NCBI GenBank assembly: GCA_964514975.1
Contig: CAZESS010000004.1
Location: 1,708 to 65,707 of the forward strand
Reading direction: 5' to 3'
From: an uncultured Thermoplasmatales archaeon
GTDB lineage: Archaea > Thermoplasmatota > E2 > UBA202 > DSCA01
DNA: 64,000 bases
Both the position numbers and the translations under genes were made by a program. Numbering within the stretch: position 1 is the first letter of the stretch; each line of letters starts with the position of its first letter. Below the pieces are notes generated by a model that was given only the letters and a program-made list of their open reading frames with translations, searched no databases and was not told the origin of the DNA. Shown here in pieces: positions 49,169 to 63,999 of this stretch.

Positions 49169-51205
49169 GTGGCAGAAGAACAGGAAGAACTGAAGGAGCA
49201 GCTTCCACCCATAGATACATGGATGCAGGAGCAGGACGTCGAAACGTCGGATGACATCGAGATACCCGATACGTTGATGGAGCAGGTCATCGGACAGGAT
49301 CATGCCGTCGAAGTCGTCCGGCAGGCCGCCCGGCAGAAGCGCCATATCATGCTCATCGGCGACCCGGGCACCGGCAAATCGATGATAGCCCGGGCGATGA
49401 CCGAGTTCCTGCCGACCGAGGAGCTCGAGGACATCCTCACCTATCCAAACCAGGACGACCCCAACACGCCTCGGGTGCGCATCGTTCCCGCCGGCAAGGG
49501 CAAGGACATCGTCGACGCGATGAAGGCCGAGGCCCGAAAGCGCAAGCAGCAGCAGTCCCAGATGATGGCCACCATCCTCGCACTCATCGTCGGCGGTGCC
49601 ATCATCGGCGCCATCGTCACCGGTGAGCTCACCATCGCCCTGTTCGGCATCATCGCCGCGGCGATGATATATCTCATCGGGATGCGCGGCGGCATGATGC
49701 AGAATCAGGAGGAAAAGGACGTGCCCAAGCTCCTTGTGTCACATGAAGACGAGGACTCGCCGCCGTTTGTCGACGCGACGGCCGCACATTCGGGGGCGTT
49801 GCTCGGCGACGTTCGCCATGACCCGTTTCAGGCGGGCGGCCTTGAGACGCCGCCGCATCTGCGCGTTGAGGCAGGCGCCATCCACAAGTCACATCGCGGG
49901 GTCCTGTACATCGACGAGATCAACACGTTGAGCCTGCCGTCACAGCAGCACCTTTTGACGGCGATCCAGGAAGAGGAATTCCAGATCACCGGGCAGTCGG
50001 AGCGGAGCAGCGGCGCCATGGTGAAGACAGAGTCGGTGCCCTGCGATTTCATTCTGGTCTGTGCGGGCAACCTCGACGCCGTCGAGGGGATGCATCCCGC
50101 ATTGCGGAGCCGCATCCGGGGCTACGGCTACGAGATATATATCAAGAGCGACATGGAGGACAACGACGAAAACCGGACGAAGCTCATCCGATTCGTCGCG
50201 CAGGAGGTCGCCAAGGATGGCCAGATCCCGCATTTCGACCGGGCGGCCATCACCGAGATCATCCGGGAGGCACAGCGCCGGGCCGGCCGGAAGGGAAAGC
50301 TGTCGCTTCGCCTGCGTGAGCTCGGCGGGCTCGTCCGGGCGTCGGGTGACCTCGCCATCAGGGAGGAGGCGGACATCGTGACCGCCGATCATGTCGTCAG
50401 GGCGAAAGAGCTTTCCTCGTCGCTTGAGCAGCAGGTGGCTGAGCGCTACCTGCAGAAAAAGAAGACCTATCAGTCGTTCAAGACCATGGGCGCCGAGATC
50501 GGCACGGTGAACGGCCTCGCCGTTATGTCCGCCGACCCGTCTATGAGCGAGTTCGCGGGCCTGATTTTGCCGATCGTCGCCGAGGTCACCCCTGCCGGCT
50601 CCAAGTCGGAGGGCAAGATCATCGCCACGGGGCGCCTGGGAGAAATTGCCAGTGAGGCGGTGCAGAACGTCTCCGCCATCCTCAAAAAATACATGGGAAA
50701 AGACATTTCGAAGCGCGATATCCACATCCAGTTCGTCGGCACCTATGAGGGTGTGGAGGGTGACTCCGCCTCGATTTCTGTTGCAACGGCGGTCATCTCG
50801 GCGATGGAAAACGTGCCACTGTCACAGGAGGTCGGCATGACCGGGTCATTGAGCGTCCACGGCGCCGTGCTGCCCGTCGGCGGCGTCACCGCGAAGATAG
50901 AGGCAGCGGCCAAGGTCGGCCTGAAAAAGGTGCTCATCCCGCGGGCGAACATGCAGGACGTGCTCATCGAGGACAAGTACAAGGACCAGATAGAGATCGT
51001 GCCCGTTGAAACATTGAAGGACGTGCTGGACAACGTGCTGGTCGGCGGCAAAAAGGACGGGTTGATGCAGAAGCTCGAGAAGCTGCAGCCGTCGGTGGTC
51101 AGCAAGGTCGACCTGGAGTCGGAGCGGGCAACGAGCAAGGTACCCCGCACGGGAAAACAGCAGGGGCAGCCGCAGAGTGCCTCCAGCAATGATGGCGAGG
51201 GCTAG
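49169..51205 (+). CDS. lonB: Membrane-bound ATP-dependent protease LonB
   Basis: [18 protein letters not shown] insertion, [27 protein letters not shown] (catalytic Ser), GGVTAK (Lys). Confidence 0.97.
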
Positions 51206-52482
51206 CTCACCCAGCCGGGGCCGACCTGCGCCATAATATTTGTCCGTGTCGTCGTGAAATCGATGTCGTAGCTGTCATCGGCCGCGGGGCCATGCAGTGT
51301 GAGGGCGACCGCGCTGGATGTGTTGGTAAGGGTGTAGGACGATGCGCCAAGGTTTGCCCGGGTGAGCGTATTGTTCAGATAGCGATACCAGGCAGCGACA
51401 TGCTTGGTGGCGATGGTAATGGTGATGTTGCTGGCGATGTATTCCTGTTCCTGCATGGAGGAATAGTTGGTTTTGATGGAATAGGTGCCGTAGCCGCTCA
51501 CGCTGGTCTTACCCGCCAGGCCGGTGACGTCGACCATGCCGAGGCTGACCATATGCGTTGGGTCGCCGCCCGTGGTATCGTTTTGTATCGAAAGCGCCGG
51601 CGCTGATATGACGGCCTGACCCTGGCTCTGGGTGAGGATGACGGCACCGCCCTCGTAGACATAGGTCTGGTCGACGAAGTAGGCGTTTTCGGAGCTGTAT
51701 TCGATGGTGCCCATGCGGATGGTTCTGCCGATGGAGCCCCCGGGGTCGTAGCGGCTGCCGGTCATGACGAATGCGCCGCCGTTGGTGTTCGAGCTGTCGA
51801 ACGACATGGTGAACGGTGTCGACAGGAAGGGCAGGATACGGGTGGAAAACCGGTATCCGTCGTCGAGCAGGTTTACAATGTAGCTCGCGTTTTTGGGAAT
51901 CCATGCCACCGGCTGTTTGTAGACGGGGACCGCCGACAGGTTGGACACCCGGAGGTCGAGCTGCCAGAAGTCAGCAGAGAAGCTCGACACGGTCACGTTG
52001 ACATATGCGGTGCCCGTCGACGCGTTGAAGTAGTCACCGCTGTAGAGATTGCTTCCATGGAGCTGGAGGTCGAAGGAGCTGAGGGAGCGAACGTTGGTCA
52101 GGTTGCCACCGGTTTTTTCGACGTTGGACATGCCCGTGGAGGAGAGCCCGTCCCCTGCTATGTCCACCTGGAAGCCGCTGTTCGCCGTTGAAAGGATGCT
52201 CAGGGACCCAAAGGCGCGGGCTGACACGAAAAACGGGAGCTCTTTGCTGCCGAGGGTGATGGAGTTGATGAGAGACATGTCCCGCTGCGCCATCGTCTCG
52301 ATGTCTATCGAGGCTTTTATCTGGGAGAACTGGTTGGCAACGGTGTCCATGTGCTCTGCCTCCCGGTCCTTCATCCAGTTGGGGACATAGTATACCTGGA
52401 CGAGGACGATGACCGCGACGAACAGGCTCACCATCAGGATAGCGACGACGACGCCGACCTGTCCGCGCTCGTTTTTTTCCAT
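51202..52482 (-). CDS. Large pilin-like protein with a class III signal peptide
   Basis: MEKNERG|[37 protein letters not shown]; later [22 protein letters not shown]; own TATA-like element at ~52504-52512. Confidence 0.75.
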
Positions 52483-52562
52483 CGGGGAAATAACCGCCCC
52501 TGGTTTAAATAAGTTTATGAAAAATTTGCTGTCTGCATCTGGCTCGCCGTGTTCCCGGTGTT

Positions 52563-55238
52563 TCATGACAGCATCCCCCGTCTGAACATGAGGTATATGG
52601 TCGCCCCAGCACCGATGATTGCGACGGCGGCGCCGATGATGAGCCAGGAGGGTCCACCGCTGTCGTCGTCTCCTCCGGGGACGGAAAACTGCATGGTTTG
52701 TTGGTTGTTGTCCTCGTTTTGCTCGTGGATGTCATCGTTCGGGTCGACATCCGCTTTGAGCGTGTGGGTTCCGGCGGTGACGTTGACGGCCTGCGTATGC
52801 TCTACCTGGCCGCCGGCTTCGATGGAGGGCAGCATGATGGAGGCTATCACTGTGTCGTCCATGATGATGTCCAGCGATGTCTGGTTTGCATTTCCGGTTC
52901 CGTTGTTGGCCACGGTGACGGTGACCTGAACCGTGTCACCGGCGTCCGGTGATGCAGGGGTCATGGCCAGGCCGGCGAGTATGAGGTCGGGCTGCAATGG
53001 CTCCGGCGCTGCCACGGATATCTCCGTGCTTGTTTCGTCGGTCATGCCGTCGTTGTCCGTCACGGACAGCGTGACCGTGTAGGTGCCGTCTTCGCTGTAG
53101 CTATGCGACGGATTCTCCTGGATGGCAGTGGCGCCGTCTCCGTAGCTCCACTGCCATGCGGTGATGCTGCCGTCGGGGTCGCTGCTCTGGTCGGTAAACG
53201 TCACGGTGCGGCCGTCCATGCTGTATGAGAAGGTAGCGGTGGGCGGCCTGGGCTCCGGAGGCGGAGGCGTGGGCTCCTGCCGGACCATGAAGCTCCATGT
53301 GTCCGATTGGGTGGCGGCGGCGCCGTCGTCGGCGACCGCATACCAGCGATATGTGGCGGCGTAGCTCAGGCCGCTCCATGTCACGCTGGCCGTATCACCG
53401 CTGGCAACGGCGGCTACAGACTCTATTTCGCTGCCGACATCCGTGTAAAACGTGACATCCATACTGTCTCCATCGGGGTCGAATACCGTGACCTGCAGGG
53501 TAACCGTCCGCGCCGTGCCGCTCGCCCCATCATTCGGCGAGGGATTGGACGGCTGCTCTGGCGGCTCGTTCACCGGCATGGTCTCGGTGGTAAACATCCA
53601 TGCCTGGGAGGTAGTGGCGTTGCGGCCGTCGTCGGCGACCGCATACCAGCGATATGTAGCGGCGTAGCTCAGGCCGCTCCATGTCACGCTGGCCATGGTG
53701 CCGCTGACCACGTCGGATATTGTATCGATGATGTCGTCGTTGCTGGCATCGTGAAAGGTGACATTCATCGAGTCGCCGTCCTGGTCCGCAACCGAAACCT
53801 GCAGTACAGCGTTCCGGGATACATTGTTCGCTCCATCATCCGGCGAGGGGTCGGATGGCTGCTCCGGCGGATTGTTGGCCGTTACCGTGACATCCCGCCG
53901 GGTTGTGTTAATCGCCCCGTCGTCATCGGTGACCGTCAGGGCGACCGTGTAGGTGTCGGCATGCTCATAGACATGCGTGGGGTGCTGCTCATGGGCGGTG
54001 GTACCGTCGCCGAAATCCCATGTCCAGTTGACGATGTCGCCGTCGTCGGTGCTCTCGTCGGTGAACGCAACCGGGTGTCCCGCACGGGGTTCCACCGGGG
54101 TATAGGAAAAATGTGCGGTGGGTGGCGGACTGGCAATTGTGAGCATCGCCGTGGTGGTGTTCGTCAGCCCGTCGTCGTCCGTCACGGACAGCGTCACCGT
54201 CTGGTTTCCCATTGCCTGATACCGATGGGTGACAACGGTGCCCGTATCGCCGGCGCCGTCTCCAAATGCCCAGGTGTAAGCGACGATGTCGCCGTCGGGG
54301 TCGCTGCTGTTCGCTGCGTCGAAGGTAACGGTCTCGTTTTTCACGGGCATCCGGGGATGCCATGCAAACGACGCCGTCGGCGCAACCGGCGAGGTAGACT
54401 CAAGGAGCACCTGTGCATTCCGGACATATACGGGTATCTCCTGTGCTGCCGTGTCGCTCAGGGTGACGTTCGAGATGTTGAGGTAACAGAGAGCGCCCTC
54501 GGTCCTGGGACTGAAGTGCAGCGTGGCGATATGGCCGCTCCCGGTTGTGTTTGTCCGGCCGACGAGGTGTACGATGCCGTCCTCCTGGCTCAGGGTGACG
54601 GATACCGGCGCGCCGTCGATTGAGCCATTGTCTGCCCCGGTGAACGACAGCAGGACGGGATCGTAGTGCAGGTCGAGGTTTACGCTGCTGAGGTTGGTGA
54701 CGTTGGAAACATTGATGGATGCATCGAAGGCTCCCTGCACGGTCTCGGGTGCCTGTACCTCGAGCAGCGTGCCGGCAACGGTAACCCGATGGCCATGCCA
54801 CGATGCCGGTATCTCCTGGCCGTCTCCATCGCTCAGGTTTCCCTCGATATCGAGGTCCGAATGGCCTGCTGCGGTGCAGGAAAACATTACCGTGGCGAGA
54901 TAGCCGGAGCCGTTGACCGGCTGCAATCCCATGTCGTTGACGATGTGCAGCACGCCGTCGTGCACGCTCGCGCTGGTCGGCACATCGGTGCCGTTGACGC
55001 TGCCGTTTTCGACCGATGCGACCGTGAGATATGAGGCGTTGTAGGAAACGGTAACGCTGGCCGCGTTGAATCCGGTCAGCTCTGACACTGATATCTGCAC
55101 CGAGATGTTCTGGCCGAGCAGCGCCATGTCCGGTCCCGCCAGGGACACCGATGGCTGCCCTTCGCCGGCGGCGGGCACGGCGGCGCCGATGGTCATGATG
55201 CAGCATGCACAGGCCAGCAGCGCAGCAACCTGTTTCAT
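52563..55238 (-). CDS. Membrane-anchored scaffoldin-like protein: signal peptide, 2 cohesins, 3 PKD, 2 Ig/FN3-like, CARDB, C-terminal TM with basic tail
   Basis: Cohesin-like units ISVQISV...VSYNASYL...GSGYLATVMF and ASINV...LHYDPVLL...GSGHIATLHF; W.FGDG/YGDG PKD motifs; VDPNDDIHEQNEDNN (CARDB); WLIIGAAVAIIGAGATIYLMFRRG. Confidence 0.82.
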   Translation of the reverse strand: MKQVAALLACACCIMTIGAAVPAAGEGQPSVSLAGPDMALLGQNISVQISVSELTGFNAASVTVSYNASYLTVASVENGSVNGTDVPTSASVHDGVLHIVNDMGLQPVNGSGYLATVMFSCTAAGHSDLDIEGNLSDGDGQEIPASWHGHRVTVAGTLLEVQAPETVQGAFDASINVSNVTNLSSVNLDLHYDPVLLSFTGADNGSIDGAPVSVTLSQEDGIVHLVGRTNTTGSGHIATLHFSPRTEGALCYLNISNVTLSDTAAQEIPVYVRNAQVLLESTSPVAPTASFAWHPRMPVKNETVTFDAANSSDPDGDIVAYTWAFGDGAGDTGTVVTHRYQAMGNQTVTLSVTDDDGLTNTTTAMLTIASPPPTAHFSYTPVEPRAGHPVAFTDESTDDGDIVNWTWDFGDGTTAHEQHPTHVYEHADTYTVALTVTDDDGAINTTRRDVTVTANNPPEQPSDPSPDDGANNVSRNAVLQVSVADQDGDSMNVTFHDASNDDIIDTISDVVSGTMASVTWSGLSYAATYRWYAVADDGRNATTSQAWMFTTETMPVNEPPEQPSNPSPNDGASGTARTVTLQVTVFDPDGDSMDVTFYTDVGSEIESVAAVASGDTASVTWSGLSYAATYRWYAVADDGAAATQSDTWSFMVRQEPTPPPPEPRPPTATFSYSMDGRTVTFTDQSSDPDGSITAWQWSYGDGATAIQENPSHSYSEDGTYTVTLSVTDNDGMTDETSTEISVAAPEPLQPDLILAGLAMTPASPDAGDTVQVTVTVANNGTGNANQTSLDIIMDDTVIASIMLPSIEAGGQVEHTQAVNVTAGTHTLKADVDPNDDIHEQNEDNNQQTMQFSVPGGDDDSGGPSWLIIGAAVAIIGAGATIYLMFRRGMLS
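53322..53694. repeat. 70-bp near-identical intragenic repeat (53322-53391 and 53625-53694, one mismatch)
   Basis: Both copies encode ASVTWSGLSYAATYRWYAVADDG; offset 303 bp. Confidence 0.85.
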
Positions 55239-57736
55239 GCCAATCCCAGGATCATCTGGATAACGAGGGTCACGTCGGCGGTGGTCACCGTGCCGTCAGC
55301 GTTGGCGTCAGCCGGCGGCGGATACTCCGCGCCGGGATGAGCGGCAAGGTGCTGTACGACCAGGTCTGTCTTCGTGATGTCGAGCGCGTTGATGCGGCCG
55401 TCCATGGTGGCGTCGCCGCGTCGCCAGACCGATATCTCCCGCGATGTCACCTGACTGTTTCCGTAGCTGTCGGTCGTGCTCAGCGTCACGGTGTAGGAGC
55501 CAGGCTGGCTGTAGGTATGGGATACGTTCGGACCCGTTGCGCTTCCGCCGTCGCCAAACGTCCATGTCCATGTGGCTATGCTGCCGTCGGCGGTACCGTT
55601 GAACGACACGGTTTCGTTGACGAACGGGAATGAATGAGTGTAGTTCACCGCTGTACGCTCCACCGTCGTGAACAAACGGGTCGGGGATGTCGTGGTGGCC
55701 ATGCCGTCCGATGCCGTCACATGCCAGGTATAGGTTTGCCCGTGCTCGAGGGTGCAGGCGACGCTCATGGTGCCGTTGCCGGTCTCCGTGGTGTGCACTG
55801 CCGTTCCGTTGAGATAAAACACGGCGTCCATGGTGTCGCTGTCGGGATCGGTGACCGTGGCTCTGAGGGAAAGGTTTGCATTGGTGGTGCTTCCGTTGCC
55901 GGGGGATTCCAGCGCGATGGATGGCGGATGGTTGTCGCCGGCGGGAACCGTGACGTTGCGCTTTTCGCCATATGCGATCCGCCCGGTGTCGCCCACGGCG
56001 ATTGCCCGGTAGTAATAGGTCTTGCCTGCTGCAACGCCGGGTATGCTCGCATTGAAACCGCCCGTCCGGTTGGTGGCCACAACGTTGGTGGAGGATTTTT
56101 TGCCGTTCCAGTATTCGAACCAGAGGTAGCATGATGTGCTGTCGCCGAGCGCTGTTAGGTTGCCGTGCAGCGTGGCGTTTTCTCCGGTGATGGTGGCCTG
56201 TCCCGTGGTGACCGTTGGGGCTGCGGGCACGGATGTCATCCGGAATGACAGCATGGTGCCGTTGTATCTGCCCTGGCTGTTGTTGACGACGGCCCGGTAA
56301 TGGTAGGTGGTGTTCCCGGCGAGTCCTGTTACCACCGTGCTGACCGGGCCCTCGCCGGTGATTGTCTGCACGGGCGTGGTCATCGTGAGATTATCGTTTT
56401 GGCCGTATTCGAACCAGACCTCGCATGTCTGGTCGCCGCCCATGTCGGTGACGTTTGCCTGCAGCACGACCGCGTGCTCCACCGAGCCGGTGTCCACCTG
56501 CGCCTTGACCGCCGTGGTGGTAAACGTGCCGTCCTGCCCGTAGGTGGCGCCCGCGCTGTTTTCGGCTACCGCCCGATAATGATAGGTCGTGCCCGGCTGG
56601 AGTCCGGTCAGCGTGCCGGTGAAGGAGCCGTCGTCAAGGGACATTGCCTGGGTGGCCGAGCCGTAGGCCGTCGTTGGCCCGTATTCGAACCATACAGTGC
56701 ATTGTTCGCCGCCCCAGTCGTCAAGGGTGCCCCTGAGCGTGGCGGTGCTGCTGGTGACATTGTCGGCGCTCCCGGTTGTCACGGCGGGCCGGACGACATG
56801 GGTGGTAAACGTTTTGGTGGAGCCATCTGTCTCCCCGGCGGTGTTGCTGGCATACGCCCGGTATTGATAGGTGGTGTCGAGCGACAGGTCGGTGAGCGTG
56901 TGGGAAAAGCTCCCGGAAGAATGCATCGTGGTATTCCCGACGGCGACATGGCTGCCGTCCGTCCAGTATTCGAACCATACGGTGCAGTTGTTCGCGCCCG
57001 GGCTGCTCAGGTAGCCGTTCAGCCTGGCGCTGTCGTAGTCGACCGAGCTCGCCGCGTTGGTTGACACCGAGGGCTTCGCCGCCGATGTGTGAAACGTTTT
57101 GTCGTCTCCGTAGCTCTTTTTTTGGCTGTTCTCGGCGACGGCCCTGTAATGATAGGTGGTGTCGGGGTCGAGGCCTGACACCGAGATGGAAAACGAGCCG
57201 GTGCCCGTTTTTTCAACCTTGTCGTCGGTCGATTGGCCATAGGACTGGCTCGTGCCATACTGGAACCATACCTGACAGGTGCCCGTATCCGGGTCGTTCA
57301 GGTCGTTGAGCGTTCCATGCAGCGTTGCGCCGCCGCTGCCTACATCGCTCTCGTCGTTTGTAACAACAGCCGGGAAGCCGACGAGGGAAAAACTGATGTT
57401 CCGGGATGGCTCGCTGACGTCGAGCACGAAGCTTTTGCGGTTTTCCTGCTGGTCATGAACGCAGGACACCTGGATGGTGTCCCCGTTTTCGCAGTTTTCC
57501 AGCGCCGACAGATCCGCCTGGTAGTATCCATCGCTGTTCGTGGTGACAGTCATAAGCGTTGACTTGGACACATCTTTCACCGTCACGGTCACGCCGGACG
57601 GCAGCGTATCCCCGTCAGCGTTTTTGATGACACCGTAGACGGGAAACGACTGGTCGAGCGCGTCGCTCGAAAGCAGCATCGGTATCAGGCTGGTCAACAG
57701 CAGGATGGCTATCATGACACTTTGTATTTTTTTCAT
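55235..57736 (-). CDS. Secreted protein with ~5 FN3-like repeats, PKD and a C-terminal dockerin
   Basis: Signal peptide; repeated (C)xVWFEYG...L.P.TTYHYRAVA; C-terminal GDATMDGRINALDI...ADANADGTVTTADVTLV (duplicated Ca-binding loop-helix). Confidence 0.85.
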   Translation of the reverse strand: MKKIQSVMIAILLLTSLIPMLLSSDALDQSFPVYGVIKNADGDTLPSGVTVTVKDVSKSTLMTVTTNSDGYYQADLSALENCENGDTIQVSCVHDQQENRKSFVLDVSEPSRNISFSLVGFPAVVTNDESDVGSGGATLHGTLNDLNDPDTGTCQVWFQYGTSQSYGQSTDDKVEKTGTGSFSISVSGLDPDTTYHYRAVAENSQKKSYGDDKTFHTSAAKPSVSTNAASSVDYDSARLNGYLSSPGANNCTVWFEYWTDGSHVAVGNTTMHSSGSFSHTLTDLSLDTTYQYRAYASNTAGETDGSTKTFTTHVVRPAVTTGSADNVTSSTATLRGTLDDWGGEQCTVWFEYGPTTAYGSATQAMSLDDGSFTGTLTGLQPGTTYHYRAVAENSAGATYGQDGTFTTTAVKAQVDTGSVEHAVVLQANVTDMGGDQTCEVWFEYGQNDNLTMTTPVQTITGEGPVSTVVTGLAGNTTYHYRAVVNNSQGRYNGTMLSFRMTSVPAAPTVTTGQATITGENATLHGNLTALGDSTSCYLWFEYWNGKKSSTNVVATNRTGGFNASIPGVAAGKTYYYRAIAVGDTGRIAYGEKRNVTVPAGDNHPPSIALESPGNGSTTNANLSLRATVTDPDSDTMDAVFYLNGTAVHTTETGNGTMSVACTLEHGQTYTWHVTASDGMATTTSPTRLFTTVERTAVNYTHSFPFVNETVSFNGTADGSIATWTWTFGDGGSATGPNVSHTYSQPGSYTVTLSTTDSYGNSQVTSREISVWRRGDATMDGRINALDITKTDLVVQHLAAHPGAEYPPPADANADGTVTTADVTLVIQMILGLA

Positions 57737-60700
57737 GTTTTCACCTCTATGTGATACTGACCGGACTGCGCTATCCTGAGAACGGCGCAGTCTCCGGGAT
57801 GGATGACGAAGTCATATTCGGGCGGGGAGACACCGACGACATAGCTGTCAAAGCTGCCAGTGCTGGTATTCCACCGGCTCACCACGCTCCCAGGGGGCAT
57901 GATAGCGCCGCCTATCTGCGACGCGAGCGCCGACGCCTGTACGGCGGTGACGCTGCTCCACACCACGTGGTTGGCGACGTTGTCGCTGTTTTTGTGGAGC
58001 TGGACGATCCGGTCCGCCAGCCGGTAGGCCTGCTCGGTGAAGTTGCCCGCGGCTGCAACGCGGAGTACCACCGCGTCGTAGGGATGGATGACGAAGTCAT
58101 ATTCGGGCGGGGAGACACCGACGACATAGCTGTCAAAGCTGCCAGTGCTGGTATTCCACCGGCTCACCACGCTCCCAGGGGGCATGATAGCGCCGCCTAT
58201 CTGCGACGCGAGCGCCGACGCCGTTATGTTGTCGCCCAGCCAGGGGATATAGTTGACCACGTTGTTGGCGTTTTTGACGATGTGGATGGTGGTGTCAACT
58301 GGCACGGTTTTGCTCATGGTGGCGTTTGCGCTGCCGTTGGTAATGGTGAGCGTGACGTTGTAATAGTTGCCGATGTGGTAGGTATGCGAGGGATTTGTCT
58401 GGTTGCTTGTTTTGCCGTCCCCGAAAGTCCACTGCCATGTGGCGGCATACGACGAGTTATCATGGAAGGCTACGGGGCTGCCGGTGGCGGGGTCTGCCCC
58501 ATAGGTGAAATCGGCTGCCAGGTATGTGCCGACGGATATGTGCGCGGATGTGCTGGCGGTGGCGTTGTCGTCGTCGGTAACGGTGAGCGTAACGGTGTAG
58601 CCTCCATCCTGGCTATATCGATGTGTCACGTCTGTACTCGTGTTCTCGTATTTTATGGTGCCGTCGCCGAAGTTCCATGTCCAGTTGACGATGGTGCCGT
58701 CGGGGTCAGATGCGTTGGGGGAGACGCCTATCTGCATCCCGCTCTGGGCATATCCGAAATCGGCGGCCGGTGGAACGTTGTCCACGGTGACGTTCTGCTG
58801 CACCTGGCTGGATGCGCCGTCGTCGTCGGTCACGGTGAGCGTGACCATATAGGTGCCATCGTCTTGATAGCTATGGGTGGCGATGGCGCCCGTAGTCGTG
58901 GTGCCGTCGCCGAAGCTCCAGTTGTACCCGGTGATATTTCCGTCGGGGTCGGTGGAGCCTGATGCGTTGAACGTAATGGTATCGAGGTCGGTGGGCTGCC
59001 CCGGCGTGTAGGTTAAGGTCGCTGTCGGCGGCACGTTTTCAACCGTTATCTGCCTGGACAATGTGGCGGTGGCGCTGTCATTGTCGGTGACGGTCAGCGT
59101 GACCGTGTAGGTGGCGTCCTCGCTGTAGCTATGCGTGGGATGCTGAGCAGTGCTGGTGTTGCCGTCGCCAAAGGTCCAGTGCCATGCGGTTATGCTACCG
59201 TCGGGGTCATTGCTGTGATCTGTGAACGTTATGTTTTCCCGGCTGACCGGGGAGGCAGGACTGAAGGTAAAGTTTGCCGTGGGAAATATGGTTATGGAAA
59301 ACTGCCCGCTGAATGATGCAAGGTTCCCCAGTGTGTCGTTGGCGTGGATGGTGACGTTGTAGCGTCCCTGCTGGCTGTAGCTCTGTGTGAGGAAATACAG
59401 TGAGGAGGTGTTCATTGTTTTGTGTGCCATGGTGTCGCCAGCATGGGTGATGGTGATGGACACGTTCTGCATCGCGAGGTTGTCGGCAACGGTGCAGGAC
59501 ACGTTGACCGTCTCGTTTGGCTCCTGTATCCCCGGACTGATGGAGAGATTGGTCATGTGGGGCGGCATGGTGTCAACGATGGTGAACTGGTGGATGGATG
59601 AATTGGAGACGTAGTCGTTCACGTCGGTTGCCCATATCCTGTAGCTGTAGTTGCCGAGCGATGGGTATGTTTGGTTGTGGAAATATATGCCGTTGCAGTC
59701 GTCGTCTATACCGGCAGGGTCCATGCTCGTGTTGATGCTGCTGCCGTCCGGAAAGGTGACGTTTATGGTGACGGATGACAGGGCGACGTTGTCGCTGGCG
59801 TTGCATGATATGTTAACGGGGTAACCATACTGTTTTTCCTGAGGAACGTCCTGCACGTCGTGTATTTCCGGGGGCATCGCCGGGTGGAAAATCTGGAATG
59901 TATAGGGGTTGCTCGTGTTGCTGTTGCCGCTCGGGTCATCTGCCCATATTTTCACGGAATAGTTGCCGGCGGTGTTGTATGGTGCCTCGTGCCACCATGT
60001 CGTGCCATCGTTGCTGTGCATGCTCATGTTGTCGGAGGTGGGACCGGTGATGTTTATCCATACCTGGTCGACTGCTACGTCGTCGGTGACCCGGCAGGTC
60101 ACGTTGACTCTGCCCTTTATTTCCTGGGGGTTTGGATACGCGGAAACATTCTCTATCCGGGGCGGCTCGACATCCCTGACGGTTATCTCCCCTGTCATGG
60201 TATCGTTGCCGTCATCCCCGTCGGTGACGGTCAGCGTGACAGTGAAATTGCCGTTGGAGGCATATGCGTGGGTGGGATTGTCGTTGTTGCTCGTTGCGCC
60301 GTCGCCAAAGCTCCATTCGTGTTCGTAGACATCACCGTCGGGGTCATATGACAGGTCGGTGAAGGAGACGGGTTCTCCCACGGTTGCATTGTCCGGCGTG
60401 AACGAGAAATCGGCGACGGGCAGAATGTTGCGGATGGTAACCTCTTGCTGTGCGGTGTCCCATGCTCCATGGTTGTCGGTGACGGTCAGGGTAACGGTGT
60501 AGGTCCGGTTTTTGCTGTACTGATATCCGACCGTTTCCCCGGTCATCGTTGTGCCATCTCCAAGATTCCATGTGTAGTTTATGATGCTGCCGTCGGGGTC
60601 AGACGAGCTGGTTGCATTGAAGGTGACGGTATCCAGCCTGGTTGGGCTGGCTGGTGTGTATGTGAAGCTGGCCGTCGGCTTGTTGGCTATAACAAATTTT

Positions 60701-61695
60701 TTTTCGGCGGACCGGACCGTGTTGTTGTTGGTGTCGTTGGCCCACACGGTATAGCGGTAGGTGCCCTTGGCAGTGTAATTTCGGGTATAATGGTAGTTGG
60801 TGGTGTTGCCCGTCCGATTCATGCTGGTGTTGTGGCATGTGCCGTTTGGAAGCGTGATGTTGATGTAGTTCATGCTCACGTTGGCGGAGCTGGTTATCCG
60901 GCATGAGATGTTGACCTGTCCACCGGGCGACTGTATCTGGGGGGTTGCCTGCAGATGGAAAATGTTTATCCCGGCGTACGGCCGCATCAGGGGATAGCGA
61001 TCGAAAGTTGAACCTGTGGCTGGCTGGATGGGATACGGGGTGTCACCGATGCCGTCGTTGTTGGTGTCGTTTCCGTCATAGCTATCCCAGTAGTTGCCCT
61101 CTTCGAGCGTGGCATTGTACCAGAAGTTGTCATGTCCGGCATCGTAGGCGCTGTTGTTGAGAAATGAGTTGTGAAACATGGTGTTGCCTGTGCAAAATTT
61201 CTCGACATACAGCCCGTGGTTGGCGGAATTTTCTATCCGGTTTTCCTGTACCACATTGTTGTCGGCAAGCCGGAGCCGTATCCCGTCATAGTTGTCGGTG
61301 ACGGTACACTGTGAAATCGTTACACGCTCTGTGCCGTCGAGGAGCATGCCGCCTTTTCCGGAGCCGCCGTTCCTGATGGTGCAGCCCGTTATGGATGCCC
61401 CGCTGGCCTTCACGGTCACCACGTATCCCTGTCCCTCCCCGTCGATGATAACGGCATCCCGACCGGAGCCCACCAGGCTGACCTGTTTGCTGATGGATAC
61501 GCGTTCATTGTATGTCCCCGCGTATACGAAAACGGTGTCTCCAGAGCCGGCGTCGTTGATCGCCTGCTGGATTGAGGTGTAATCCTCGCCCCCGTTGACA
61601 TCCACCGTGATTGTCTCCCCCTCCGTAACATATCCCCTGAAGGAAAAGAGCAGGAGGCAGACAGCTAGGAGAGCGAGCGGGAAGCTTTTTTTCAT
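57733..61695 (-). CDS. Secreted NosD/CASH beta-helix + multi-PKD protein with a duplicated C-terminal domain
   Basis: Signal peptide; DYTSIQQAINDA..GDTVFVYAGTYNE; EGNYWDSY.G.D.N.DGIGDTPY; six PKD motifs; two ~95-aa C-terminal repeats. Confidence 0.88.
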   Translation of the reverse strand: MKKSFPLALLAVCLLLFSFRGYVTEGETITVDVNGGEDYTSIQQAINDAGSGDTVFVYAGTYNERVSISKQVSLVGSGRDAVIIDGEGQGYVVTVKASGASITGCTIRNGGSGKGGMLLDGTERVTISQCTVTDNYDGIRLRLADNNVVQENRIENSANHGLYVEKFCTGNTMFHNSFLNNSAYDAGHDNFWYNATLEEGNYWDSYDGNDTNNDGIGDTPYPIQPATGSTFDRYPLMRPYAGINIFHLQATPQIQSPGGQVNISCRITSSANVSMNYINITLPNGTCHNTSMNRTGNTTNYHYTRNYTAKGTYRYTVWANDTNNNTVRSAEKKFVIANKPTASFTYTPASPTRLDTVTFNATSSSDPDGSIINYTWNLGDGTTMTGETVGYQYSKNRTYTVTLTVTDNHGAWDTAQQEVTIRNILPVADFSFTPDNATVGEPVSFTDLSYDPDGDVYEHEWSFGDGATSNNDNPTHAYASNGNFTVTLTVTDGDDGNDTMTGEITVRDVEPPRIENVSAYPNPQEIKGRVNVTCRVTDDVAVDQVWINITGPTSDNMSMHSNDGTTWWHEAPYNTAGNYSVKIWADDPSGNSNTSNPYTFQIFHPAMPPEIHDVQDVPQEKQYGYPVNISCNASDNVALSSVTINVTFPDGSSINTSMDPAGIDDDCNGIYFHNQTYPSLGNYSYRIWATDVNDYVSNSSIHQFTIVDTMPPHMTNLSISPGIQEPNETVNVSCTVADNLAMQNVSITITHAGDTMAHKTMNTSSLYFLTQSYSQQGRYNVTIHANDTLGNLASFSGQFSITIFPTANFTFSPASPVSRENITFTDHSNDPDGSITAWHWTFGDGNTSTAQHPTHSYSEDATYTVTLTVTDNDSATATLSRQITVENVPPTATLTYTPGQPTDLDTITFNASGSTDPDGNITGYNWSFGDGTTTTGAIATHSYQDDGTYMVTLTVTDDDGASSQVQQNVTVDNVPPAADFGYAQSGMQIGVSPNASDPDGTIVNWTWNFGDGTIKYENTSTDVTHRYSQDGGYTVTLTVTDDDNATASTSAHISVGTYLAADFTYGADPATGSPVAFHDNSSYAATWQWTFGDGKTSNQTNPSHTYHIGNYYNVTLTITNGSANATMSKTVPVDTTIHIVKNANNVVNYIPWLGDNITASALASQIGGAIMPPGSVVSRWNTSTGSFDSYVVGVSPPEYDFVIHPYDAVVLRVAAAGNFTEQAYRLADRIVQLHKNSDNVANHVVWSSVTAVQASALASQIGGAIMPPGSVVSRWNTSTGSFDSYVVGVSPPEYDFVIHPGDCAVLRIAQSGQYHIEVKT
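57796..58222. repeat. Perfect 142-bp direct repeat (57796-57937 = 58081-58222)
   Basis: Base-for-base identical by manual comparison; encodes ASALASQIGGAIMPPGSVVSRWNTSTGSFDSYVVGVSPPEYDFVIHP twice. Confidence 0.92.
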
Positions 61696-61704
61696 CGTGA
61701 CCTC

Positions 61705-63999
61705 TTATTCGACACGGCTGATGAGCGGACGGATGTCCTCTTCGCTGCTGGGGCCAGCAATGTCGTAATAAACGCTCCAGTACCAGGCGGTGCCGCTCTC
61801 GGGCTGCTGCGTTGCATTGGGATACCGCTGCTCGTAGTTCTTCCAGTAGTTGCCCTCTTTTTCCTCGGAGTCCGGATTGTACCAGCTGTTGCCGCCGCCT
61901 TCGTCGTAGCACAGGCTGGAACTCCTGAAGCTGGTGTTTTCGAAGTTGTTCGAGTATATCTTGTTGTTTTTGGAATTGTTTCCAAGGATGTAGACGCCGT
62001 AGCTGGCGGACAGGTCGATGGTGAACGTGTTTTCTTTGAGGACATTGTTACTCGTGGAAGAGGTCAGGTAGATTCCTCTACCATTGTATTCAAGTATGTT
62101 ATCCTGGATTGTGCCATCCGTGGCGGCTTCCATATATATGCCTTGCGTGCTGCCCGAGATGGTGTTGCCGGTGATGGTACAGTAGGTGGAGGATTGCACG
62201 TAGATGCTCTCGTTTGTGTTCGATGACATGGTGTTGCCGCTGATGGTGCAGGACCCCGAGTTCACGATGTATATTCCCCGTTCATTGTAGGATATGGTGT
62301 TTCCGTTTTCGACATGGGTGCCGTTGGAGCTCCTGATCTCTATGCCGATGCTGTTGTTGCAGATAGTGTTGCTCTGTATGGGGCGCGACGAACCAAGCGT
62401 CGATGAAAGCACTTTAACGGCGGCCGAGGTGTTATGCCAGTACAGGTGGTTGTTTTTAACGTCGGCGGTGTCGGAGTTGTTGATGACGATGCCCGGCGCG
62501 TTCTGCCACAGCGTGTTGTTGTTGACGACGTTGTTATCGGAGGAGGAGGCAAGGTAGATACCCGAGCCAGCGTGGCCATAGACCCGGTTTCCTCCCTCCG
62601 CGTTGTTGCCGACGCTGTTGCTGTTTGAAGCGGAGAGATAGATGCCGTCCGTGTTGCCATACACGGTGTTGTCAAAGATGCTGTTGCCGTTCGAGGACGA
62701 CAGATAGACGCCCCGCTGGTTGCCATACACCGTGTTATCCTCGATGGAGTTGCCCTTCGAGGTGGCCAGGATGATGCCATTGCCGCCATTGTCATGCACC
62801 GTGTTGTTACGTATTTCGTTGTTGCCCGCGGTCGCCGGCTTGGAGTTCTCCAGGTAGATGCCGTGGGACGTGCTCGAATGGACGACGTTGTCCACGATGA
62901 TGTTTCCGTTTCCTCCAGACGAGGAGAGATGAATACCGATGTCGTTGTGCTCGACGGTGTTGGACAGCACGTCGTTGTTGTTCCCCGAGGTGAGCAGCAG
63001 GCCCGTCTGCGTGTTGTTGTGGAGATAGTTGCCGGCTATCCGGTTGTTGGAGGAACTCGTTGACAGGATGCCGAAGCCCTGGTTCCATCGGATGACGTTG
63101 CCGGTGATGTTGTTCGTGGACGAGGACTGCACCTTCATGCCGTTGCCAGTGTACTCGACGAGGTTGTCAACAATGGTGTTTTCCTGAGCGTAGTTGTTGA
63201 GATAGATGCCGCTGATGCTGCTGTTGTTGATGGCGTTGCCGGTCACGTTGTTGTAGCTGCTCCCCTCGACATAGATACCATAAACGTTCTCCCAGAGCGT
63301 GTTGTTGTAGATGGCGTTGGTGTTCGAAAACGAGTACAGACGGATGCCGCTTTGCCCGTTGCCATATATATCGTTCTGTGTTATCTCGTTTTCATTTGAC
63401 GACTGCATGTAGATACCATGTCTGCCGTTTCCAGTGATAACGTTGTAGATAACGACGTTTCCGCCGGGGAGATTGTAGAGAGCCCGGTTGAAATGTATGC
63501 CGTCGCCGGTGCTGTTGGAAATTGTGCAATGCTCAATGGTGTTGTTCTTTGAATCATAGATGTATATGCCCCGCGAGTTGTTGTGAACCGTGTTGTTGTA
63601 GATGGTGTTGAAGTTGGAGGAGGAAGACAGAGATATCCCGGTTTCCGTGTGATTCATAATCTGGTTTGCCTGTATCACGTTGTTGCTCGAGCTGCTCCCC
63701 AGGATACCGTACTGGTTGCTTTCTATCTGGTTGTGCACGATGTCGTTGTTGCTTGAATCCTGTAGCTCCAAACCGTTCAGATTTGACTGCAGGGTGTTAT
63801 CTTCGATGGTGTTTGAATGGGAATAGTCGCTTATCAGGAAAGCGCTCCCGGAGTGGTCGGTTATCACGTTGTCGGTAACGATGTTGCTGTTCGATATGTT
63901 GAGATAGATGCCTCGCGTGTTGTTTTGTATCGTGTTGTATCTGAGGGTGTTCAGGTCGGTGGCGGACACGAGTTCTATTGCGGTGCCGGTGTTGTCTTT
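61705..63999 (-). CDS. Long right-handed parallel beta-helix (NosD/CASH) protein, 5'-truncated by the window
   Basis: About 30 ~22-aa repeats GIYL..S..N.I..N.I..N; EGNYW C-terminal cap; frame open to the window end. Confidence 0.88.
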   Translation of the reverse strand, partial: KDNTGTAIELVSATDLNTLRYNTIQNNTRGIYLNISNSNIVTDNVITDHSGSAFLISDYSHSNTIEDNTLQSNLNGLELQDSSNNDIVHNQIESNQYGILGSSSSNNVIQANQIMNHTETGISLSSSSNFNTIYNNTVHNNSRGIYIYDSKNNTIEHCTISNSTGDGIHFNRALYNLPGGNVVIYNVITGNGRHGIYMQSSNENEITQNDIYGNGQSGIRLYSFSNTNAIYNNTLWENVYGIYVEGSSYNNVTGNAINNSSISGIYLNNYAQENTIVDNLVEYTGNGMKVQSSSTNNITGNVIRWNQGFGILSTSSSNNRIAGNYLHNNTQTGLLLTSGNNNDVLSNTVEHNDIGIHLSSSGGNGNIIVDNVVHSSTSHGIYLENSKPATAGNNEIRNNTVHDNGGNGIILATSKGNSIEDNTVYGNQRGVYLSSSNGNSIFDNTVYGNTDGIYLSASNSNSVGNNAEGGNRVYGHAGSGIYLASSSDNNVVNNNTLWQNAPGIVINNSDTADVKNNHLYWHNTSAAVKVLSSTLGSSRPIQSNTICNNSIGIEIRSSNGTHVENGNTISYNERGIYIVNSGSCTISGNTMSSNTNESIYVQSSTYCTITGNTISGSTQGIYMEAATDGTIQDNILEYNGRGIYLTSSTSNNVLKENTFTIDLSASYGVYILGNNSKNNKIYSNNFENTSFRSSSLCYDEGGGNSWYNPDSEEKEGNYWKNYEQRYPNATQQPESGTAWYWSVYYDIAGPSSEEDIRPLISRVE

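Follow-up and report, generated by a model that had tools for sequence, protein, structure and literature searches.

The stretch of DNA analysed here, referred to as the window, comprises 64,000 nucleotides of an uncultured Thermoplasmatales archaeon (assembly GCA_964514975.1, contig CAZESS010000004.1; G000:C4:1708-65707, where G000 is the genome under study and C4 the contig). On its minus strand lies a cassette of five co-oriented genes, in which the gene for a protein ending in a dockerin (gene 3) is followed directly by that for a membrane-anchored protein with two cohesins (gene 4). The cassette is conserved in an uncultured order of the Thermoplasmatota, and the most probable reading, held with some reserve, is that it serves in non-cellulosomal surface display or adhesion, gene 4 tethering gene 3 through a cohesin–dockerin interaction. 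The five genes and the modules that carry this reading are as follows.

55235 to 57736, minus strand: gene 3, 833 residues, with a Sec-type signal, an N-terminal prealbumin-like domain, five FN3-like repeats, one Ig-like and one PKD domain, and a dockerin at the C-terminus
55247 to 55417, minus strand: type I dockerin of gene 3, residues 774-830, with two calcium-loop repeats
52563 to 55238, minus strand: gene 4, 891 residues, with a signal peptide, two cohesins, PKD, Ig-like and CARDB domains and, at the C-terminus, a transmembrane helix with a basic tail
54771 to 55157, minus strand: cohesin 1 of gene 4, residues 28-156, 43.7 bits, mean pairwise identity of 41% among 13 orthologs
54384 to 54770, minus strand: cohesin 2 of gene 4, residues 157-285, 36.7 bits, mean pairwise identity of 36%, 33% identical to cohesin 1
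52584 to 52646, minus strand: transmembrane anchor of gene 4, residues 865-885, a hydrophobic stretch followed by RRGMLS (to residue 891)
61705 to 63999, minus strand: 3' part of gene 1, which runs off the window; the full gene (C4:63412-68997) encodes 1861 residues
57733 to 61695, minus strand: gene 2, 1320 residues, with a Sec-type signal, a NosD-like beta-helix, Ig-like domains, six to seven PKD domains and a C-terminal double domain
51202 to 52566, minus strand: gene 5, a match to DUF7289 (PF23960) with 34.9 bits against a cut-off of 27

Both modules score above the curated cut-offs of their Pfam families, Cohesin (PF00963) and Dockerin_1 (PF00404), in the scan that an earlier sequence-only reading of the window had proposed as a check. 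Gene 4 matches Cohesin with 76.5 bits against a cut-off of 24.1 in two stretches (residues 28-285, window 54384-55157), and further matches PKD three times and CARDB. A profile built from 13 gene-4 N-termini matches, with both of its halves, the solved cohesins 4ums_A (E 2.8e-6), 2xdh_A (E 3.8e-5) and 1g1k_A, of which 2xdh_A is the A. fulgidus cohesin. The transmembrane helix and the basic tail are present in gene 4 of the window and in all 11 of the orthologs shown. At the end of gene 3, Dockerin_1 scores 28.8 bits against a cut-off of 22.9 (33.4 bits in the genome search). The two dockerin repeats align end to end with the solved type I dockerins 4fl4_A (E 2.9e-5) and 1ohz_B, and the module also aligns with the dockerins of GH9, CelD and Xyn10B enzymes. 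Its core, including the Asp, Asn and Gly residues of the loops, is invariant in 12 of 12 gene-3 orthologs.

The remainder of gene 3 is an array of small beta domains. Over an alignment of 12 orthologs, which are 43-58% identical to the window protein, five invariant cysteines mark the repeats, and the N-terminal prealbumin-like domain is the best-conserved part. The Pfam matches are to fn3 (37.6 bits), Pur_ac_phosph_N (52.6 bits), PhoD_N (47.3 bits) and PKD, and no catalytic domain is recognisable in gene 3 with either Pfam or NCBIfam. Scans with the same two libraries found no carbohydrate-binding module and no glycoside hydrolase in any of the cassette proteins. Since gene 3 has no recognisable catalytic domain, a modular adhesin or an envelope scaffold is a sensible class for the assembly, as the sequence-only reading had suggested from the same feature. 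That reading had described four co-oriented genes, all of which are present on the minus strand at the coordinates it gave (a gene 1 frame running off the window at 63999, then genes 2, 3 and 4); a fifth co-oriented gene follows gene 4, so the cassette numbers five genes and not four. It was also right about the modules, placing an FN3-repeat protein ending in a dockerin at about 55241-55420 and two N-terminal cohesins at about 54400-55150, on a PKD/Ig/CARDB stalk with a C-terminal transmembrane anchor.

Conservation was followed in 41 genomes, made up of G000 and 40 relatives, and the loci of 12 relatives from two families of the order were fetched. With a threshold of E≤1e-5 the two-cohesin module is found in 33 of the 41 genomes, and with E≤1e-20 in 31. 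An ortholog of gene 3, either full-length or split between contigs, occurs in 30 genomes including G000, and three more have single domains only. Among the 40 relatives, gene 3 and the cohesin module occur together in 29; the module is found alone in one, at a contig edge, and gene 3 alone in none. Synteny, a further check that had been proposed, was followed in the 12 fetched Thermoplasmatota loci, which retain the order 1-2-3-4-5-lonB as far as each contig extends. All 12 loci have gene 4 after gene 3, while gene 2 precedes gene 3 in 11 of 11 informative loci and gene 1 precedes gene 2 in 6 of 6. Gene 5 follows gene 4 in 10 of 11 informative loci, the exception being G016, where topoisomerase-VI-like genes (named from their translations, not from a family scan) come after gene 4. 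In the window genes 2 and 3, and likewise genes 3 and 4, overlap by 4 bp (ATGA at 57733-57736 and 55235-55238); the overlap between genes 3 and 4 recurs, again at 4 bp, in 10 of the 12 relatives' loci, and in the other 2 these genes lie 1 nt apart. The contig of one relative, G001, ends inside gene 5 and so carries no information on the presence of genes 3 and 4. Among public contigs, full-length relatives of gene 3 were found only in uncultured Thermoplasmata, Thermoplasmatales or Thermoplasmatota metagenome-assembled genomes.

The other cohesins and dockerins of the genome provide a context for the pairing of genes 3 and 4. G000 has seven dockerin matches, all seven C-terminal, and eight cohesin matches. 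In five of the seven cases the dockerin gene is followed directly by a gene with an N-terminal cohesin: genes 3 and 4 on C4, one pair on C14, two on C5, and a pair on C16 (3612 residues, then 1330). Between C14 and C5 the cohesins share 76% identity and the dockerins upstream of them 68-72%; a third dockerin of this group stands, at a contig end, before a fragment of a matching cohesin. No other dockerin of the genome exceeds 29% identity to that of gene 3 over its full length, apart from one stretch of 20 residues at 60%. Cohesin type tracks the type of the neighbouring dockerin, which is the pattern expected of cognate pairs encoded side by side. Among the full-length cohesin proteins of G000, four of six end in a transmembrane helix and one of six in a C-terminal double domain like that of gene 2. 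Mainly from this comparative evidence, we infer that the gene-3 dockerin binds a gene-4 cohesin; structure prediction lends the pairing weak support, as described below.

In the arrangement that we favour, every product of the cassette would have its own means of being retained at the surface. Gene 4 would be a type I membrane protein carrying two distal cohesins on a stalk of PKD, Ig-like and CARDB domains. Gene 3 would be exported through the Sec pathway, after which its C-terminal type I dockerin would plug into a gene-4 cohesin in a calcium-dependent manner, so holding the FN3-like array and the conserved N-terminal domain off the membrane. The class III signals of genes 1 and 5 would be cleaved by a prepilin peptidase, the hydrophobic helix then anchoring or assembling the proteins, and gene 2 would be retained via its C-terminal double domain. 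The parts on display would be non-catalytic beta-helix and Ig-like arrays, most likely serving adhesion or a surface coat and not an enzyme scaffold. The genes would also be co-transcribed.

Several observations weigh against this reading. The adhesive role is drawn from domain types only, and gene 5, present in 37 of the 41 genomes, is more widespread than genes 3 and 4 and is therefore not tied to them. The genome has one dockerin of the gene-3 type against two cohesins in gene 4. Complex prediction, in which the cohesins (residues 28-285) were combined with two calcium ions and the dockerin (residues 765-833), each protein with its ortholog alignment, gave a weak score of 0.35 and returned no interface. 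The best of three controls scored 0.00, at least 98% of contacts are common to the runs, and the pLDDT reaches 93 for the chain and 87 or more for the partner. The same mark is reached by 116 of 157 solved complexes and by 2 of 215 mismatched pairs, though scores of 0.60 or less are seen in only 18 of those 157 and in both of the passing mismatches. As cohesin–dockerin complexes have already been solved, the pass may also reflect memory of known structures.

A further point against it is a natural variant, G009, a genome of the same family that is 94% complete. Its cassette consists of gene 1, a single protein of 2030 residues, gene 5 and lonB. The large protein (L116:3916-10005, minus strand) joins the body of gene 2 (residues 3-1188) through more PKD to the PKD-CARDB-transmembrane end of gene 4 (residues 666-887); it has neither cohesins nor the gene-2 double domain, and gene 3 was not found in that genome. 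At least one species can therefore dispense with the cohesin–dockerin link. It looks as if a deletion between PKD repeats would yield this arrangement, which shows that anchoring the gene-2 body in the membrane is a viable outcome. The variant fits a role for the pair, gene 3 and the double domain as non-covalent connectors in the usual form. The fixed, order-wide cassette with its defined neighbours, taken with a natural variant in which the gene-2 body is joined covalently to the gene-4 anchor in place of the pair, offers a testable topology, in which the pair would link a membrane stalk to displayed non-catalytic arrays.

Genes 1 and 5 carry pilin-type or pilin-like features. Gene 1, which starts about 3.3 kb beyond the end of the window, was described by the sequence-only reading as a long beta-helix protein, and its part within the window indeed matches NosD (332.7 bits) and Beta_helix (291.8 bits). 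Over the full length the scores are 412.3 bits for Beta_helix, 359.3 for NosD and 179.7 for PKD_4, with 17 matches to the para_beta_helix repeat, and the layout is a pilin-type N-terminus, three PKD domains and a parallel beta-helix of about 1400 residues. The N-terminus has a class III (pilin-type) signal and a hydrophobic helix, a motif kept in five orthologs; Pilin_N (PF07790) matches residues 12-83 with 53.2 bits against a cut-off of 25.2 (60.6 bits in the genome search), and arch_flag_Nterm falls just under its cut-off of 20 with 18.4. The open reading frame of gene 5 starts at 52566, in a 4-bp overlap with gene 4. The true start is likely to be the ATG at 52482, because the orthologs start at the equivalent methionine and on account of an AT-rich stretch. 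The Atlas neighbours of gene 5 are DUF7289 clusters (0.96-0.97), and its N-terminus has a class III-like K/R-G-Q motif followed by a hydrophobic stretch. An AlphaFold2 model (pLDDT 82.5) has a long helix at residues 5-65 and a beta-rich head. Gene 5 thus seems pilin-like in outline, although Pilin_N has no match at E≤1 on its first 122 residues and a Foldseek search of the model against the PDB gave none at E≤1e-3, both of which count among the points against a pilin-type retention of gene 5.

Two loci of relatives also concern gene 5. In G024 (L038:1824-5699, minus strand), genes 4 and 5 lie in one frame of 1291 residues with no stop between them. The transmembrane helix leads into a short basic linker and then into the pilin-type signal of gene 5, which would remain a workable topology; the single frame reflects either a genuine fusion or an error in the sequence. 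In G040, a relative outside the order that belongs to a different family of the class, a homolog of DUF7289 type with 30% identity to gene 5 stands directly before a T2SSE/PilB3_C ATPase of 957 residues (L119:1301-5550, plus strand), an adjacency that links the gene-5 family to pilus-type machinery.

The alternative that survives best, though we consider it unlikely, is that the cassette builds a pilus-type appendage, with genes 5 and 1 as shaft or minor pilin and tip adhesin, PilB and PilC encoded elsewhere, and the cohesin–dockerin pair as an accessory at the base or as unrelated cargo. The Pilin_N match of gene 1, the motif, helix and head of gene 5 together with its DUF7289 membership, and the ATPase beside the G040 homolog are all consistent with this, as are the three T2SSE ATPases and two A24 prepilin peptidase homologs found elsewhere in G000 and the persistence of genes 1 and 5 in G009, where the cohesin–dockerin link is missing. 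However, there is no pilB or pilC in or beside the cassette in G000 or the 12 fetched loci, a protein of 1861 residues with a pilin signal is far above the size of a shaft subunit, and gene 5 lacks both the Pilin_N match and any structural match to solved pilins. Class III signals also occur on surface proteins that are not part of pili.

We regard it as improbable that the cassette forms an envelope coat, in which gene 4 would provide the membrane stalk and gene 3 a canopy clipped on to it, much as in archaeal S-layers of two components, the beta-helix proteins adding further parts to the coat. Such a role would suit a single-copy cassette found order-wide and fixed between housekeeping genes. 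It would also suit gene 3, which is the best-conserved product with its identity of 43-58% extending from end to end and is built of Ig-like arrays, and the 4-bp overlaps, which suggest coupled translation. Against it, G009 has no gene 3 at all, and 7 of 37 relatives from the two families (f1 and f2) have no strong match to gene 3 or 4, several of these having cut contigs.

Similarly doubtful is the proposal that the modules of genes 3 and 4 are not partners of each other, the gene-3 dockerin binding another cohesin or a ligand that is not a cohesin and the gene-4 cohesins holding other proteins. The weak complex-prediction score and the presence of two cohesins for one dockerin would agree with this, and the gene-4 cohesins are only 36-41% conserved among orthologs. 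On the other hand, the two genes are adjacent in every one of the 12 loci and gene 3 is never found without gene 4, the types of cohesin and neighbouring dockerin co-vary at other loci, and the genome has no other dockerin of the gene-3 type.

Gene 2, which the sequence-only reading had described as a beta-helix/PKD protein, bears this out with a beta-helix at about residues 42-208, matched by NosD (61.6 bits) and Beta_helix, and with PKD_4 matches of 368.2 bits across six stretches. Its C-terminus is a tandem of two domains, with the following features.

57736 to 58305, minus strand: C-terminal tandem double domain of gene 2, two units of about 95 residues, the last 190 residues or so of the protein
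57796 to 57937 and 58081 to 58222, strand not assigned: perfect direct repeats within the double domain, 142 nt each, at a spacing of 285 nt

In gene 2 the double domain is a diverged form (27-33% identity) of an undescribed domain, outside any Pfam or NCBIfam family, that stands at the extreme C-terminus of at least 18 other large secreted proteins of G000. A profile search of the genome gave 21 matches, corresponding to about 19-21 secreted proteins (loci L080-L114), and scans of 26 aligned members gave no Pfam or NCBIfam family with matches in more than 2 of them. Pfam identifies eight of 17 carriers as peptidases, from six families (C25, C25 propeptide, M14, C11, C13, two S8 and M28), and all eight, when examined, end in the double domain and not in a dockerin; the carriers that are not peptidases include beta-helix/PKD or FG-GAP proteins. 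The cohesin protein on C14 also carries the double domain, and its close paralog on C5 ends in a transmembrane helix. This swap between the two paralogs suggests that the double domain is a surface anchor, and it is probably a lineage-wide module for surface anchoring or sorting.

Searching 1.84 billion representatives with the double-domain profile gave 2567 matches at E≤1e-3, 987 at 1e-10 and 228 at 1e-30, and in 135 of the 150 matches listed the best stretch ends no more than 14 residues from the C-terminus. In a sample of the phylum the domain was present in 23 of 151 genomes, among them 12 of 12 sampled from the two main families of the order. Of the 18 proteins recovered by a word-index homology search with the C-terminus of gene 2, 17 were orthologs of gene 2 and the other was a C25 peptidase. 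An AlphaFold2 model of the double domain (pLDDT 84.6) had no Foldseek match in the PDB at E≤1e-3, and with VIA-align wide the best Z was 5.0 (root-mean-square deviation 2.6, 58 aligned), which is within the noise range of the tool. Copies of the domain on other proteins showed no repeat homogenisation of the kind seen in gene 2. There, exact repeats of 56-148 nt are found at the same offset of 285 nt in all eight of the orthologs examined, although these are only 55-78% identical to the window copy across the double domain, and the two halves of the gene-2 domain are therefore being homogenised by concerted evolution.

A more speculative extension, to which we give little weight, would place the double domain in a non-covalent chain running from the gene-4 stalk through cohesin and dockerin to gene 3, and on through a further site and the double domain to the gene-2 beta-helix. 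The double domain would then be a new archaeal docking or sorting module and the cassette the surface display platform of the lineage. The G009 variant fits this chain, since there the whole of it has collapsed into one polypeptide. If this were true, the double domain would fix at least 18 other secreted proteins, eight peptidases among them, to the cell in a 'proteolysome' analogous to the cellulosome but with a different connector. Gene 3 was also considered as a general receptor for the double domain. That candidate is weakened by the genomes outside the order that carry the domain, as five of five have no full-length ortholog of gene 3; the matches to gene 3 are PKD, Ig or FN3 pieces only in four of them, and the fifth has none.

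The sequence-only reading had called the architecture cellulosome-like and had left open that gene 4 recruits dockerin-bearing enzymes encoded elsewhere. The modules are real and lie in a tight, conserved cluster. The recruitment of enzymes fares otherwise: the genome-wide list of dockerin proteins that it proposed runs to seven, none of which (one being a fragment of 207 residues) has a catalytic Pfam domain at E≤1e-3, and enzyme recruitment is therefore not supported. A scaffold of this kind, gathering dockerin-tagged hydrolases on the two cohesins of anchored gene 4 in a genome with many secreted peptidases, is thus very unlikely, given that five of the seven dockerin genes have their own cohesin gene directly downstream, that the secreted peptidases examined carry the double domain at their C-terminus in place of a dockerin, and that the cassette has no match to a carbohydrate-binding module or glycoside hydrolase.

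A non-cellulosomal cohesin–dockerin tether is a known kind of system in archaea. Section 32 of a 2022 paper (PMC9012536) describes cohesin and dockerin modules from archaea without cellulose degradation, states that binding has been shown for archaeal pairs, and notes a lack of large scaffoldins; Peer 2009, Bayer 1999 and Haimovitz 2008 are cited there for the spread of the modules and for verified archaeal binding. Dockerins of ANME archaea are reported in the same section on substrate-binding proteins or proteins with S-layer domains, and attachment of proteins to the outer cell layer is the role proposed, the function still being called unclear. By that account, the Archaeoglobus fulgidus pair and the ANME proteins resemble the present case in having the modules on secreted or surface proteins with no large multi-cohesin scaffoldin. 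They differ in that the pair here lies in a cassette of five genes, together with two pilin-signal proteins and a double-domain protein, fixed between scpB and lonB across two families of the order. The cargo here is an FN3-like array, whereas the ANME dockerin proteins are, according to the same paper, often substrate-binding.

Bacterial anchoring scaffoldins (4ums_A, 'cellulosomal anchoring scaffoldin B', and the SdbA-type 2b59 and 3kcp) are likewise cell-anchored with distal cohesins for a type I dockerin, and match by profile, but the anchor of gene 4 is a C-terminal transmembrane helix and not an SLH domain or a sortase signal. In contrast to a cellulosome, there are no dockerin enzymes, no carbohydrate-binding module and no primary scaffoldin among the proteins scanned. 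With archaeal type IV pilin-like proteins the cassette shares scores above cut-off for Pilin_N (gene 1) and DUF7289 (gene 5); unlike them, gene 1 is a beta-helix protein of 1861 residues, and the cassette has no gene for an assembly ATPase or platform. A literature search, judged by titles, found nothing on this cassette or lineage, nor on DUF7289. What is distinctive here is that the pair has a fixed context of five genes, pilin-signal proteins included, that synteny extends across the order, that a fusion variant exists and that there is a link to the double-domain family. The presence of this large family on peptidases secreted by Thermoplasmatota from sediments and vents bears on how extracellular enzymes are kept at the cell.

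The genomic setting of the cassette is defined by housekeeping genes on either side and by two spacers.

61696 to 61704, minus strand: spacer of 9 bp between genes 1 and 2, which holds GAGG, the junction reading TAA-gaggtcacg-ATG
C4:68998-69137 (L016:5999-6138), just outside the window, minus strand: AT-rich spacer of 140 bp between scpB and gene 1

Upstream of gene 1 are scpB, scpA and smc; scpB is found upstream in G000 and in one fetched locus, G003. At the other end lonB (TIGR00764, 887 bits) is convergent to gene 5, and the stops of the two genes overlap by 4 bp. The 9-bp gap and the two ATGA overlaps read in the sequence exactly as had been claimed. Between positions 51000 and 64000, two promoter-like sites were counted where 5.9±2.5 would be expected, and 16 terminator-like sites where the expectation is 12.8±3.8, both with bacterial-type models that are uninformative for an archaeon. 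A search of sequencing runs for the sequence listed four DNA or contig runs, one of them with 0.99 of its words, and no RNA run. The spacer of 140 bp contains repeated TATA-like boxes and, 8-10 nt before the ATG of gene 1, GGAGG, and is probably where the promoter of the cassette lies.

With about four distinct types of neighbour-encoded cohesin and dockerin, G000 provides further material beyond genes 3 and 4. Four genes for giant surface proteins lie side by side on C16 (27329-48286, plus strand; L019/L020), encoding dockerin proteins of 1182 and 3612 residues, a cohesin protein of 1330 residues with a transmembrane helix, and a cohesin protein of 781 residues, and so forming a second and larger cohesin–dockerin cluster. 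On C26 (90-3158, minus strand; L022), a cohesin protein of 1022 residues has a Cys-rich tail after its transmembrane helix, matched by Prok-RING_1 with 22.3 bits, below the cut-off; this might be a cohesin surface protein with a zinc-ribbon-like tail inside the cell.

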